From positions 1 to 21,949 of the forward strand of contig CAYXAY010000010.1 in NCBI GenBank assembly GCA_964463155.1: a stretch of DNA of 21,949 bases, given 5' to 3'. Source of the DNA: an uncultured archaeon. Its GTDB lineage: Archaea > Iainarchaeota > Iainarchaeia > Iainarchaeales > CSSED10-239. The first letter of the stretch is position 1, and every line of letters begins with the position of its first letter. The notes beneath the pieces were generated by a model. That model did not search any database and was not told the origin of the DNA. It saw nothing but the letters and a program-made list of their open reading frames with translations. Made by a program: the position numbers and the translations under genes. Positions 1 to 21,949 of the stretch are shown here, one piece after another.

Positions 1-302
1 AGCTTTTCTGTTCTTTTGTAGATTCTCTCTGTTTTCTTGTCTATTCCCTGAACAACAAGCTTTACTTTTTCTAGGTCTTTTGCAAGACTGTCGCTTTTCT
101 GGTGAGAGACATGAAGAGTAGATATCCTTGAGAACTGGATGTCAAGCTTATTGTATTTTGCCTCAATGTCTGATAGCCTGTCATCAGTAGCATCTATTCT
201 CTCCTTAAACTTGTTTGCTACAAATCTAATAAAAAACACAAAAATAATTAATAAGAACAGAGAATTAACCAAAAGAATAAACAACAGTTCTGTATAGGTC
301 AT
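1..302 (-). CDS. Small single-pass membrane plus coiled-coil protein, paralog of 305..637. Its 3' end runs off the left window edge (partial). Not in the supplied ORF track.
   Basis: ATG at 302..300 on the minus strand, preceded by GAGGT five nt upstream and lying 2 nt after the stop of 305..637. My hand translation is open to the window edge: MTYTELLFILLVNSLFLLIIFVFFIRFVANKFKERIDATDDRLSDIEAKYNKLDIQFSRISTLHVSHQKSDSLAKDLEKVKLVVQGIDKKTERIYKRTEKL. It aligns with the 305..637 product: both start MT, then a hydrophobic helix, and share a KDLEKVK.V.QGIDKKTE.I.KRTEKL tail. Nucleotides 1..100 are visibly similar to 321..420. Confidence 0.6.
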   Translation of the reverse strand, partial: MTYTELLFILLVNSLFLLIIFVFFIRFVANKFKERIDATDDRLSDIEAKYNKLDIQFSRISTLHVSHQKSDSLAKDLEKVKLVVQGIDKKTERIYKRTEK

Positions 303-304
303 TT

Positions 305-637
305 TTACCTCTTATTATATAGTTTTTCTGTTCTTTTAAATATCTTTTCTGTTTTCTTGTCTATGCCTTGGATAACGAACTTTACCTTCTCTAGGTCCTT
401 TGAAAGACTGCTTTGATGATTTGTTGTCTTGTCTGAAACCCTAGAAAAATTGCAATCCATCTTTTCTATCTTGTTTTCAACAAACTTACAACGCTCTTCA
501 AGGTTTTTTATCTTGTCGTGATTGTCCTCTATTTGTTCATTAAATCTTTCAGAAACATGTCTTATAATAAATATCACAATTATTATTGTAATTATGAAAT
601 TAATAAGTAATATTAGTATTAAATCTCCACCTGTCAA
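305..637 (-). CDS. Small (110 aa) single-pass membrane protein with a charged helical, probably coiled-coil, C-terminal part. Function unknown.
   Basis: ORF track. N-terminal hydrophobic helix LILILLINFIITIIIVIFII, followed by R and a K/E-rich helical segment. The start is TTG at 637, one nt after the TAA of the giant gene, suggesting translational coupling. A paralog lies immediately downstream. Confidence 0.6.
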   Translation of the reverse strand: MTGGDLILILLINFIITIIIVIFIIRHVSERFNEQIEDNHDKIKNLEERCKFVENKIEKMDCNFSRVSDKTTNHQSSLSKDLEKVKFVIQGIDKKTEKIFKRTEKLYNKR

Positions 638-638
638 A

Positions 639-20635: not shown

Positions 20636-20666
20636 TATAATTATAATATAACATTATTGAACAATT

Positions 20667-21539
20667 ATGATTAAGAAACAAATATTGATACTCTTTGTTT
20701 TTCTAGCAATCATTAATTATAATTATGCCCACAGTGTTGTTTCTCAAGACACAGAAATATTTGCAGATAAGTTTGATAGTTATAAGGTTTCCGAAAAATT
20801 AACAATTACAGATATTAATTCTCAAAAATTAGAATTTCCTATTGTTCCAAGTTATGACCTTGTTGTTAAGGTTAACAATCAGAGATATTCAAATATAACC
20901 TACACTAGTGATTTATTAATTATTAATTTAAATAATATTCCAGAAACACTTAATCTGGAAATAATTTATCTTACGGATTATTATACAAACAAAAATAACG
21001 GGATTTGGAACATCAAATATAAATCCAGACATTCAGAAAGTCTAAATACTTTAAAAATAACTCTACCAAGAAATGCAGAAATAACAGAAACACTAATCTC
21101 TTCTCCTGTTCAAGTAATCAATGAACAAATTGTTATTTCTTTTAAAGATATCACAGAAATAAATATTAATTATTATTTAAGAAATGTTGAATATAAGAAC
21201 AATTATTATTATTATTTATTAATAATTCCATTTGTTTTTGTTGGTGGGTATCTATTAATTAAAAATAAACCGAAAATTAAAAAAGAAATAAAAACTATAG
21301 AAAAGGATTTACTTTTTGGATTAAATGAGAATGAACAAAAGATTATGAATATAATTATTGAAAATGAAGGACAATCTCAAAAAATGATAACTGCCAAAAG
21401 TTTCTTACCTAAAGGAACAGTTTCAAGAAATATACAAAAACTTGTAGATAAAGGATATATCCATATAAAAAAATATGGAGTAAGCAATAAACTTTTCCTT
21501 GGAGAAGTATTTAAAAAAGGTGAAAAAAATGCTAAATAA
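20667..21539 (+). CDS. Membrane-tethered winged-helix (MarR/TrmB-like) transcriptional regulator with an extracytoplasmic N-terminal domain.
   Basis: N-terminal signal or anchor MIKKQILILFVFLAIINYNYA. About 160-aa outside domain. TM YYYYLLIIPFVFVGGYLLI (about 21200..21260). Then KIKKEIK and LNENEQKIMNIIIENEGQSQKMITAKSFLPKGTVSRNIQKLVDKGYIHIKKYG (about 21310..21480), a typical wHTH. Confidence 0.75.
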   Translation: MIKKQILILFVFLAIINYNYAHSVVSQDTEIFADKFDSYKVSEKLTITDINSQKLEFPIVPSYDLVVKVNNQRYSNITYTSDLLIINLNNIPETLNLEIIYLTDYYTNKNNGIWNIKYKSRHSESLNTLKITLPRNAEITETLISSPVQVINEQIVISFKDITEININYYLRNVEYKNNYYYYLLIIPFVFVGGYLLIKNKPKIKKEIKTIEKDLLFGLNENEQKIMNIIIENEGQSQKMITAKSFLPKGTVSRNIQKLVDKGYIHIKKYGVSNKLFLGEVFKKGEKNAK

Positions 21540-21909
21540 AAGAATAATAATCGGAATAATTATGGCAATTGTTTTTGTTTCGGGATTAGTTATTGGGTTT
21601 CTAATCTTTTCTGAAAAAAATACAACAGAGATTGCAAATCCGGCGTCTGCTTATTGTAAAAATCTTGGAGGAACATTAAATATTGTATCTTCAAAACAAG
21701 GAGAATATGGAATATGCACATTTGAAGATGGATCTCAATGTGAAGAATGGAAACTTTATAGAAAAGGGTGCTTTAAAGGACAATATCCTCCAACAGGAGG
21801 TAAAGTTTGTACAATGGAATACAAACCTGTTTGTGGAGTTAATGGGGTTACTTATGGGAATGCATGTGCTGCAGACAGTGTTCCAATACTAAAAGAAGGA
21901 GAATGTTAA
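21529..21909 (+). CDS. Membrane-anchored or secreted DUF333-like plus Kazal-like (serine protease inhibitor fold) protein.
   Basis: I prefer the ATG at 21529, with AGGTGA at 21518..21523, over the track's TTG at 21499. It overlaps the preceding gene by 11 nt. Hydrophobic helix [67 protein letters not shown] matches the DUF333 pattern. [20 protein letters not shown]...GEC (21808..21906) matches the Kazal core C-x7-C-x10-C with PVCG.nG.TY.N.C. Confidence 0.75.
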   Translation: [126 protein letters not shown]

Positions 21910-21949
21910 TTATATCTTTTATTTTAATGATTCTGTAGAAATCCTTTTA

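Follow-up and report, generated by a model that had tools for sequence, protein, structure and literature searches.

A putative multi-domain murein hydrolase and its conserved gene neighborhood in a Diapherotrites/Iainarchaeum-related DPANN archaeon

We have analyzed a 21,949-nt stretch of DNA (positions 1 to 21,949 of contig CAYXAY010000010.1, assembly GCA_964463155.1; "the window" throughout), a complete NCBI contig from the chromosome of a DPANN archaeon that has low GC and whose relatives bear the names Diapherotrites or Iainarchaeum. Among its nine genes (g0 to g8; Table 1), g4 encodes a very large secreted protein with a predicted set of murein-cleaving domains. Our favored interpretation, in which we have moderate confidence, is that g4 and its neighbors form a conserved and probably regulated secreted module that degrades bacterial peptidoglycan, and that the adjoining giant adhesin fiber (g2) was acquired separately. 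In this view, the module is centered on g4, vertically inherited and lineage-specific.

Results

Domain content of g4

Genes were called from a six-frame listing of open reading frames (ORFs) and their translations. Related loci (L numbers) were gathered from genome and metagenome scans and from contigs encoding two homologs, giving 21 loci from about ten lineages. Alignments and domain counts for the g4 family refer to 12 members, five with a type-A and seven with a type-B C-terminus.

The g4 protein begins with a signal peptide (aa 1-23), followed by a variable domain (aa ~24-230) that only some relatives carry, having been gained or lost among members, and by a conserved region (aa ~230-1040). 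Three predicted catalytic domains come after it. A first-pass annotation of the window, made without database searches, had described a 1.75-kaa secreted protein with three peptidoglycan-active modules. The signal peptide and, by hidden Markov model, the YkuD module stand; the GH73-like module falls just below its cut-off, and the third module is without a Pfam match.

The YkuD domain (PF03734) scores 58.9 bits against a cut-off of 23.4 (E=1e-15), and all 12 family members match it. Its motif, HGT...SHGCIRM (written HGTNYENSMGQQKSHGCIRM), includes the catalytic residues H1460, which is invariant, and C1476, which is present in 11 of 12 members. A 713-aa AlphaFold model of g4 was usable only over this domain, with a predicted local distance difference test score (pLDDT) of 70-88 there and below 45 in the C-terminal 250 aa. 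Foldseek returned 62 matches to the modeled domain at E<=0.001; the 50 listed were all of the YkuD family (E down to 2.6e-7), and those that led among the matches listed were Bd1075, YkuD, Csd6 and Pgp2. We take Bd1075, Csd6 and Pgp2 to be L,D-carboxypeptidases. PDB entries were also matched by sequence search. The best NCBIfam match was ElsL (NF040925; E=4e-24, positions 24-162 of 164), at 85.2 bits against an equivalog cut-off of 270 that g4 does not reach; the domain appears to be related to ElsL at the subfamily level and not as an ortholog. Transpeptidases of the LdtE type matched at 1e-9 only, over ~50 residues round the motif. By this ranking of similarities, on which the predicted activity rests, the g4 domain seems closest to L,D-carboxypeptidases rather than to transpeptidases. 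One family member, P0011, reads KSSGNIRLL in place of KSHGCIRM, so that the catalytic Cys (replaced by Asn) and the preceding His are gone; its Cys-His-His and GH73-like domains are retained.

The C-terminal 120 aa of g4 match GH73 (PF01832) over positions 4-121 of 123 with 27.1 bits, the cut-off being 30.2 (E=7e-6). A GH73-like match recurs in all five type-A members at E about 1e-6. In GH73 enzymes, the catalytic Glu lies in the region of the N-terminal helix, and a motif resembling YATDxxY is found toward the C-terminus. The corresponding region of g4 has an invariant Glu (E1652, in FKNEKSMYN) and the sequence WAEDPNY near the C-terminus, to which catalytic roles were assigned by inspection. 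In the type-B members (7/12), the GH73-like domain is replaced by ~350 aa with the signature AQESG...GIAQIE and weak matches to Phage_lysozyme2, Transglycosylas and SLT_4. That two different murein glycan-cleaving folds occupy one position points to murein as the substrate, and we consider this the best internal evidence for it.

The first of the three domains (aa ~1100-1215) is named here for its candidate triad, C1114, H1185 and H1201. Pfam gave no match for it in the window's protein. Relatives gave sub-threshold matches to families of the same papain-like clan (Peptidase_C92, 0.015; LRAT, 0.009; NLPC_P60, 0.002), and in P0190 the NLPC_P60 match overlaps this region. When 1.84 billion representatives were searched exhaustively by profile, just 74 relatives of the domain were recovered, most of which are stand-alone secreted proteins of ~200 aa. 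Across 72 relatives, the Cys and His are conserved to at least 90%. When a 76-sequence family was compared with the Pfam-validated NlpC/P60 domain of P0157 using hhalign (P=5.5e-4, probability 12%), C1114, H1185 and H1201 fell in register with DCS, SHV and IHA of P0157. A model of the domain by itself had a pLDDT of 45 and gave Foldseek output that was noise; its order of secondary-structure elements is compatible with a papain-like alpha+beta fold. We regard the domain as a probable, not proven, divergent NlpC/P60-like peptidase or amidase. A PDB sequence search with the Cys-His-His and C-terminal domains produced chance matches only (ribosomal L28, glutamate racemase, JAK2).

The Cys-His-His domain was also observed in other settings. 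P0157 (3182 aa) carries it beside a canonical NlpC/P60 domain, CarboxypepD_reg and bMG3; P0155 (1419 aa) combines it with a weak sub-threshold match to C-type lysozyme; and in L024 (134-739) it forms a stand-alone secreted protein adjoining an aminoacyl-tRNA-synthetase-like gene.

The g4 family is tiny, comprising 14 clusters at 90% identity and four at 50%, and a second homolog search with the catalytic region alone added nothing beyond two fragments. No LysM, SH3b, PG_binding or other recognized cell-wall-binding domain was detected in g4. The first ~1000 aa are probably binding or spacer sequence. A 1238-aa protein encoded in L023 (158-3874) is 26% identical to g4 over aa 485-721 only, so that at least one distant relative of the N-terminal region of g4 lacks the catalytic domains.

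Conservation and divergence of the g4 neighborhood

Adjacency of g4, a g5-like gene and g7 is found in about ten distinct relatives, at identities in g4 down to 44%. Wherever the flank is long enough, a small ORF (sORF) and the g5-like gene lie divergently upstream of g4 and are followed by g7, with the exception of L008. On the other flank come g3 and then the genes for GGACT, aspartyl-tRNA synthetase (AspRS) and threonyl-tRNA synthetase (ThrRS), and g3 is syntenic in all relatives with that flank. The position of g8 is after g7 in L004, L010/L017 and L013, and directly beside g4 in the rearranged L008; L007, L009 and L012/L015 lack it. Co-occurrence in relatives, a check that the first-pass annotation had proposed, is therefore found for g4, the g5-like gene and g7, and mostly fails for the giant fiber g2.

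In comparison with the closest relative, L010, g4 is 60% identical and g3, g5, g7 and g8 are 80-91% identical. This fast divergence of g4, together with the gain and loss at its N-terminus and the swap at its C-terminus, is a pattern typical of organism-facing proteins.

Promoter, duplicated leader and the g5/g6 paralogs

The first-pass annotation had seen g5 and g6 as secreted paralogs beneath a duplicated conserved leader, and both statements hold, although the paralogs are distant. Their mutual identity is 19%, and the ortholog that relatives carry in single copy is matched by g5 at E=1e-72 and by g6 at 9e-21. Because four invariant cysteines are common to the two and both match one ortholog, g5 and g6 are true but old paralogs. 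The core of g5 is 82% identical to its L010 ortholog, and g5 is the ortholog of the relatives' single-copy gene. A C-terminal domain of ~85 aa is absent from g5 and present in g6 and in all orthologs; in g6 it is 56% identical to that of L010. Owing to this low identity, the idea of g6 as a mosaic with an ancestral C-terminus was rejected, and a PepSY-like assignment of the g6 tail was dropped because the Pfam scan gave it no support. Pfam was likewise uninformative for the g5/g6 core, the L024 Cys-His-His protein and the L023 proteins.

The two leader copies (17408-17606 and 18840-19029) are 91-94% identical. Set against ~19% identity in the coding sequences, this indicates a recent event, either copying or gene conversion, that was confined to the regulatory region. 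The duplication junction lies within g5, whose last codons, AAT CAA AAA TTG TAG, are part of the leader repeat (18840-18859 versus 17408-17427).

Copy 1 of the leader consists, in order, of tandem TAAGTTTCG(G/C) repeats abutting an A-rich transcription factor B recognition element (BRE), a TATTTAAATA box, a 10-bp stem-loop (GATTTAATGA...TCATTAAATC) and the Shine-Dalgarno (SD) sequence AAGGAGG. A 24-nt promoter core, AGTTTCRCNAAARGTAYTTAAATA, occurs once per locus in 17 related loci and twice in the window. It is made up of tandem TAAGTTTCGC-like repeats adjoining the BRE and TATA box, and by inference these tandem TAAGTTTCGC repeats are a candidate binding site for g7.

The stem-loop is at 17523-17547 and 18946-18970 in the window, and one is found at the same leader position, just before AAUCCCCU, in L007, L009 and L012. 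Its sequence is clade-specific (GAUUUAAUGA/UCAUUAAAUC in the window, AUGUGCUA.../...CACAU elsewhere). In single-sequence folds of the leader, z lay between -2.6 and -3.2 for three clades and L004 showed no signal, and RNAalifold found no consensus structure for the leader, the clade-specific hairpins failing to align. The stem-loop may function as an RNA element or, alternatively, as a palindromic operator.

Between the leader and the g5 ortholog, 10 of 10 relatives examined (L010 at ~9580-9700 on the minus strand, L009, L007, L012, L013, L015, L017, L018, L020 and L004) have a conserved sORF of 39-41 aa, MKKLSCPARKIRQYFLAIFIYLAIVITLLFTILRIKTKI, with a C-terminal transmembrane (TM) helix and an SD sequence of its own. 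This sORF is in neither leader copy (17493-17587 and 18916-19010), nor anywhere else in the window. At the starts of g4 and g7 (17330-17359 and 20655-20684) there is a common 30-nt stretch of 87% identity, TGAACAATTATGA..AAACAAATA. This stretch takes in 12 nt before the ATG along with the opening codons of both genes (MNQKQI in g4, MIKKQI in g7) and may represent a common short-leader or initiation context.

The predicted regulator g7 and the inhibitor-like protein g8

In g7, a winged helix-turn-helix (wHTH) domain is matched by HTH_24 at aa 219-266 (E=7e-10, 38.8 bits against a cut-off of 21.9), and MarR_2 and DUF7343 match as well. As read from the sequence, the protein has a signal peptide, an extracellular part of ~150 aa, a TM helix (YYYYLLIIPFVFVGGYLLI) and a cytoplasmic C-terminal wHTH. 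A 19-residue hydrophobicity scan flagged neither the N-terminal stretch nor the internal YYYYLLIIPFVFVGGYLLI, and the membrane topology of g7 accordingly depends on this reading. Of the one-component membrane wHTH regulator first proposed, Pfam supports the wHTH; the membrane tether is a reading on which the scan is silent.

The g8 protein combines DUF333 (PF03891; E=7e-22, 77.9 bits against a cut-off of 25) with Kazal_1 (PF00050; E=1e-7, 32.1 bits against a cut-off of 21), as the first-pass annotation had it, and both domains exceed their Pfam cut-offs. The Cys pattern of the latter is present and an inhibitor function is predicted. An exact match to the g8 product was found with the ATG start, and a literature search on the function of DUF333 yielded nothing informative. 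Where g8 is absent (L007, L009, L012/L015), a Lys-rich TM protein comes after g7. Relatives also encode, farther along than g7 or g8, a conserved small protein (MDGFLTN...) that has a single TM helix between a Lys/Pro-rich N-terminus and an N-rich tail (L007, 7264-7665; L009, 6379-6765; L012, 5246-5617; L008, 452-844); the window ends before the site at which it would be expected.

Host lineage

All six species-representative genomes that carry the g4 family are labeled as archaeal, and one g4 homolog is annotated "MAG: L,D-transpeptidase [archaeon]", MAG standing for metagenome-assembled genome. The ThrRS of L010, 4 kb from the enzyme gene, is 86% identical to that of Ca. Diapherotrites and 84% to that of Ca. 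Iainarchaeum, versus only 61-64% to Woesearchaeota/Nanoarchaeia proteins, and locus L015 shares one 287-kb contig with a Diapherotrites-named ThrRS. The NCBIfam families closest to the g7 wHTH are the archaeal Sta1 and Lrs14 regulators. The DPANN-type archaeal host that had been suggested from the sequence is thus borne out by the archaeal relatives, the ThrRS identities and the Sta1/Lrs14-like wHTH.

The archaeal-looking promoter boxes with A-rich tracts noted in the first pass were also recovered. The motif TTTAAATA occurs 19 times in the window against 9.4 expected, a count reached in 1 of 100 shuffles, and g5, g6 and g7 are each preceded, at a distance of 30-100 nt, by an A-rich tract with TTTAAATA.

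The host might alternatively be a murein-walled bacterium, for instance of the candidate phyla radiation (CPR), with ordinary wall-remodeling enzymes. Low GC, a small-genome style, enzyme domains of bacterial type and the SD-like AAGGAGG upstream of g5 and g6 would suit such a host, but it is contradicted by the archaeal carriers of the family, ThrRS identities of up to 86% to DPANN, the Sta1/Lrs14-like wHTH and the TATA/BRE promoters. The contig is not that of a CPR bacterium, and we give this alternative practically no weight.

The giant fiber block and g3

The g2 protein starts with a signal peptide, a PQQ-like beta-propeller (aa ~274-365) and ~1300 aa belonging to no family. MG2 domains lie at aa 1764-1849 and ~3050-3125, on either side of a stalk of ~800 aa (aa ~2190-3010) that is rich in N, S, T and I and is encoded by 21-nt (heptad) tandem repeats. 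Toward the C-terminus there follow a Gly linker, NEW3/NPCBM_assoc (aa 3295-3365; E=3.9e-6, above the Pfam cut-off), a TM helix (aa 3511-3529) and RRRKK. The 3.5-kaa stalked, fiber-like surface protein of the first-pass annotation was therefore recovered with its signal peptide, heptad stalk and C-terminal anchor. In the predicted run of CARDB/NEW3 domains before a TM helix and basic tail, CARDB was the element that whole-protein and segment-wise Pfam scans did not find. The same scans found no protease, nuclease or murein-lytic domain in g2. The stalk weakly resembles the coiled coils of trimeric fibers (reovirus sigma-1, P22 gp26, trimeric autotransporter stalks; E=0.003-0.6). As to the small neighbors of g2, g0 is 35% identical to g1 on L001, marking the two as paralogs, and g1 has only weak matches of coiled-coil type.

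The GC content at third codon positions (GC3) is 0.37 in g0, 0.30 in g1 and 0.26 (0.255) in g2, compared with 0.14-0.18 in g3-g8. Only L009/L014 have an ortholog of g2 (60-62% identity), likewise located between g3 and the position of GGACT; the giant gene of L009 matches its neighbors in composition (GC3 0.17). Most syntenic relatives have the GGACT gene in the place of g2. Given its deviant GC3, the fiber block looks recently imported from a higher-GC relative, and g0-g2 are probably a variable insert that is exchanged between lineages and lies outside the conserved module. The first-pass view of the whole window as one attachment-and-breach apparatus does not survive the absence of the fiber from most relatives and its deviant GC3.

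A whole-window mobile element or provirus, in which the lysins and a tail-fiber-like protein would travel together, could be argued from the GC3 of the fiber block, the lysin-like domains of g4 and the weak stalk similarity to viral fiber coiled coils (sigma-1, gp26). This similarity reflects coiled-coil composition only (E=0.003-0.6), and 2.9 million viral contigs contained no relatives of g4 or g2. The window has no integrase, capsid or terminase gene and no flanking tRNA, and the chromosomal surroundings of the module, with aminoacyl-tRNA synthetase genes next to it, are conserved in every relative. For g3-g8, a mobile or viral island is largely excluded, and for the window as a whole we judge it very improbable.

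On the other side of the fiber block, g3 lacks a signal peptide, as had been noted, and Pfam confirms it as an HhH-GPD DNA glycosylase; its NCBIfam matches are below cut-off. Its 8-nt tail-to-tail overlap with g4 (12089-12096) is an arrangement kept in all relatives. We class g3 as a housekeeping neighbor that is not part of the system.

Organization of the window

The features of the window are collected in Table 1. Independent short Logan contigs (1.3-2.9 kb, SRR11582140) span three junctions, g2-g3-g4, g2-g1-g0 and g7-g8, with 100% identity, and they add no flanking sequence. Searches of the window for tRNA genes and for Rfam families gave no matches. By the hydrophobicity scan and reading of the N-termini, six of the nine proteins (g2, g4, g5, g6, g7 and g8) read as having a signal peptide or N-terminal anchor and g3 has none, so that the seven signal peptides counted in the first pass are one too many; the N-terminal TM helices of the two small proteins, g0 and g1, were confirmed by a TM scan.

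Table 1. Coordinates of genes, predicted domains and regulatory elements in the window
Feature	Position	Strand	Description
g0	1..302	-	Partial small protein with N-terminal TM helix and coiled coil; C-terminus runs past the window start
g1	305..637	-	110 aa; N-terminal TM helix and coiled coil; directly downstream of g2
g2	639..11303	-	3554-aa membrane-anchored giant fiber protein; probable start ATG at 11267
g3	11425..12096	+	HhH-GPD DNA glycosylase, endonuclease III / 3-methyladenine glycosylase-like, cytoplasmic; Pfam E=7e-18
g4	12089..17347	-	1752-aa secreted multi-domain protein, predicted murein hydrolase
g4 domain 1, Cys-His-His (aa ~1100-1215)	13703..14050	-	In-register hhalign alignment to NlpC/P60
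g4 domain 2, YkuD (aa 1354-1499)	12851..13288	-	Pfam E=1e-15
g4 domain 3, GH73-like (aa 1631-1747)	12107..12457	-	Pfam Glucosaminidase E=7e-6, below cut-off
Promoter and leader, copy 1	17408..17587	+	TAAGTTTCG(G/C) tandem repeats, A-rich BRE, TATTTAAATA box, stem-loop, SD AAGGAGG
g5	17588..18859	+	423-aa secreted protein; N-terminal insert and 4-Cys core domain
Promoter and leader, copy 2	18840..19010	+	One repeat unit fewer than copy 1
g6	19011..20591	+	526-aa secreted paralog; CarboxypepD_reg, 4-Cys core, conserved C-terminal domain
g7	20667..21539	+	290 aa; probable one-component membrane wHTH regulator
g8	21529..21909	+	126-aa membrane-anchored or secreted protein; DUF333 and Kazal-type inhibitor-like; alternative TTG start at 21499

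Discussion

We favor a secreted murein-degrading module as the explanation of the g4 locus. To our knowledge, DPANN archaea of this kind make no murein, and the same is assumed of the present host; g4 would therefore be exported to digest bacterial peptidoglycan. The degradative types of its modules make action on bacterial walls, as already envisaged in the first pass, the most economical reading. After its ~1000-aa region, g4 would carry three murein-cutting activities in series: a divergent NlpC/P60-like cysteine peptidase or amidase, a YkuD domain of L,D-carboxypeptidase type that would trim or cleave stem peptides, and a third domain, GH73-like here and SLT-like in sister lineages, that would cut glycan strands. 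The target would be the peptidoglycan of a living partner or prey, or cell-wall debris, and digestion would give access to the partner or free amino acids and amino sugars. Divergently from g4, the conserved archaeal promoter would drive the secreted 4-Cys protein (g5/g6). The g7 protein would probably sense an extracellular cue and act at the tandem repeats beside the TATA box, g8 may protect the exposed proteins against serine proteases, and the fiber, where present, would add reach and adhesion.

Several observations weigh against this interpretation. With regard to the enzyme, two of the three catalytic assignments in g4 are sub-threshold, structure models are poor outside the YkuD domain, no informative homologs were found for the first ~1000 aa, and P0011 is without the YkuD catalytic Cys. 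With regard to the neighborhood, the clade is narrow (ThrRS 85-90% identical), which limits the synteny evidence, and the housekeeping neighbors (HhH-GPD, GGACT, AspRS, ThrRS) are equally syntenic, meaning that the linkage may be inherited rather than functional. Moreover, about half of the lineages lack g8, and neither the g5/g6 core nor g0/g1 appears to have informative homologs. The lack of murein in the host, finally, is a premise drawn from general knowledge.

The enzyme could also serve a purely saprotrophic purpose, in which g4 digests free murein debris for an auxotrophic archaeon that has no living partner and the fiber is an unrelated adhesin. The closeness of the YkuD domain to ElsL, an L,D-carboxypeptidase of cell-wall recycling, is in line with this, as are the source samples (activated sludge, landfill leachate and digesters), the lack of the fiber in most relatives that keep the enzyme, and the suggestion that dead-cell murein is an amino-acid source for DPANN (PMC11537232). 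However, g4 diverges faster than its neighbors and swaps domains, which is more typical of an antagonistic or partner-specific interface, and its ~1000-aa conserved extension and the dedicated membrane sensor-regulator suggest a targeted and regulated use. Neither argument is decisive, and we regard scavenging as unlikely while treating it as the strongest of the competing explanations.

Considerably less probable, in our judgment, is that the g4 domains act not on bacterial murein but on an archaeal polymer, either remodeling or cross-linking the cell's own wall or surface polymer or acting on an archaeal host, for instance on pseudomurein-like or glycoprotein material. Transpeptidases occur among enzymes of the YkuD fold, g4 has its catalytic Cys and His intact, and cultivated DPANN generally have archaeal hosts (PMC11537232). 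Against this, the YkuD domain resembles carboxypeptidases more than transpeptidases, both alternative C-terminal domains come from murein glycan-cleaving families, and a survey of archaeal peptidoglycan hydrolases had only two homologs from pseudomurein-making classes (PMC12352652).

That DPANN archaea attack bacterial walls is not a new proposal. Large murein-lytic proteins have been described in Woese- and Pacearchaeota, for which bacterial wall binding and degradation were proposed (Castelle 2021, PMC8204110), and Rinke 2013 and Castelle 2015 are cited in PMC8204110 on the same theme. Such MAGs have been called "vampiristic" (Vigneron 2022, PMC9723730), and the theme is repeated in PMC10936187 and PMC11537232. 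Archaeal peptidoglycan hydrolases kill bacteria in experiments, and their homologs are prominent in Nanoarchaeota (PMC12352652). The central idea of the first-pass annotation is thus already in the literature. Its statement that the gene combination matches no described system is correct for the architecture, which we did not find described, and not for the murein-lytic DPANN concept, which is published. The literature searched contained no paper mentioning both YkuD and DPANN. We likewise found no description of an architecture that joins a YkuD-carboxypeptidase-like domain to Cys-His-His and GH73/SLT domains, of such an enzyme in a lineage labeled Diapherotrites or Iainarchaeum, of the C-terminal domain swap, or of a neighborhood comprising the conserved promoter, the sORF, the 4-Cys protein and a TM-wHTH.

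A close published counterpart is fam00969 (PMC8204110), with which comparison was made by description. Like it, g4 is a very large secreted DPANN protein with murein-cleaving domains of bacterial type, and sister members of the g4 family carry a lysozyme/SLT-like C-terminus. Unlike fam00969, g4 has a GH73-like and no SLT/GH23 domain, adds YkuD and Cys-His-His, and belongs to a Diapherotrites/Iainarchaeum rather than a Woese-/Pacearchaeota lineage.

The fold and the His/Cys motif of g4 are those of the YkuD L,D-carboxypeptidases, such as A. baumannii ElsL, Bdellovibrio Bd1075 (its source being a bacterial predator), H. pylori Csd6 and C. jejuni Pgp2. These known enzymes are small bacterial proteins (~160-330 aa) whose substrates are recycled muropeptides or the wall of the cell itself, whereas in g4 the domain is part of a 1752-aa secreted archaeal protein. 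Murein hydrolases of bacteria and phages that combine NlpC/P60 or CHAP with GH73 resemble g4 in that an exported protein joins a cysteine peptidase or amidase to a glucosaminidase or lysozyme. In contrast to these, g4 is archaeal, has no recognized wall-binding domain, possesses a family-specific N-terminal region of ~1000 aa, and has a peptidase domain too divergent for Pfam.

As for the remaining genes, the SPEARE proteins of Nanohaloarchaeota are giants with serine protease, adhesion and restriction-endonuclease domains. In being a multi-kiloresidue, membrane-anchored surface protein, g2 is similar to these and to the products of giant Omnitrophota genes (bioRxiv 10.1101/2023.11.21.568195). 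Proteins of this kind, in ultrasmall symbionts or predators, are presumed to serve in contact between cells. Unlike SPEARE, g2 is without protease or nuclease domains; its domains are limited to a beta-propeller, MG2/Ig-like domains, NEW3 and the heptad stalk, and it is a sporadic insert. The g7 protein, as read, follows ToxR-type logic and that of archaeal wHTH proteins of the Lrs14/Sta1/TrmB type, in that a single polypeptide would join a domain outside the cell, through one TM helix, to a wHTH in the cytoplasm. Its order is the reverse of that in ToxR, with the sensor N-terminal and the wHTH C-terminal, and its extracellular domain belongs to no known family.

Conclusions

On which organisms DPANN archaea depend is a long-standing question; the hosts of nearly all those in culture are archaea. 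A conserved secreted enzyme with three predicted murein-cutting chemistries points to bacteria or wall debris as a resource. It extends the theme of the large murein-lytic protein beyond Woese- and Pacearchaeota and beyond SLT domains, and its C-terminal domain swap and 60% identity, where its neighbors have 80-91%, suggest arms-race-like diversification. The analysis also reveals a small and poorly described Cys-His-His family, with 74 representatives among 1.8 billion proteins, and novel lysins might be obtained from the enzyme.

Only tentatively, and as a conjunction of parts that we think rather doubtful when taken together, do we hypothesize that a Diapherotrites/Iainarchaeum-like DPANN archaeon lives on bacteria, unlike its known cultivated DPANN relatives, which are parasites of archaea, by means of a regulated and fast-diversifying wall-breaching kit. 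The kit would comprise a tri-catalytic hydrolase with a glycan-cutting head swapped between GH73 and SLT from lineage to lineage; a conserved bidirectional promoter region co-expressing the hydrolase and the 4-Cys accessory protein; a 39-aa membrane peptide that normally precedes the 4-Cys protein and would have been lost in the window; a trans-membrane wHTH switched by wall fragments or contact; and an optional, horizontally exchanged 3.5-kaa fiber for reach. If this were true, the locus would be a genetic marker for DPANN archaea with bacterial hosts and a source of anti-bacterial lysins.

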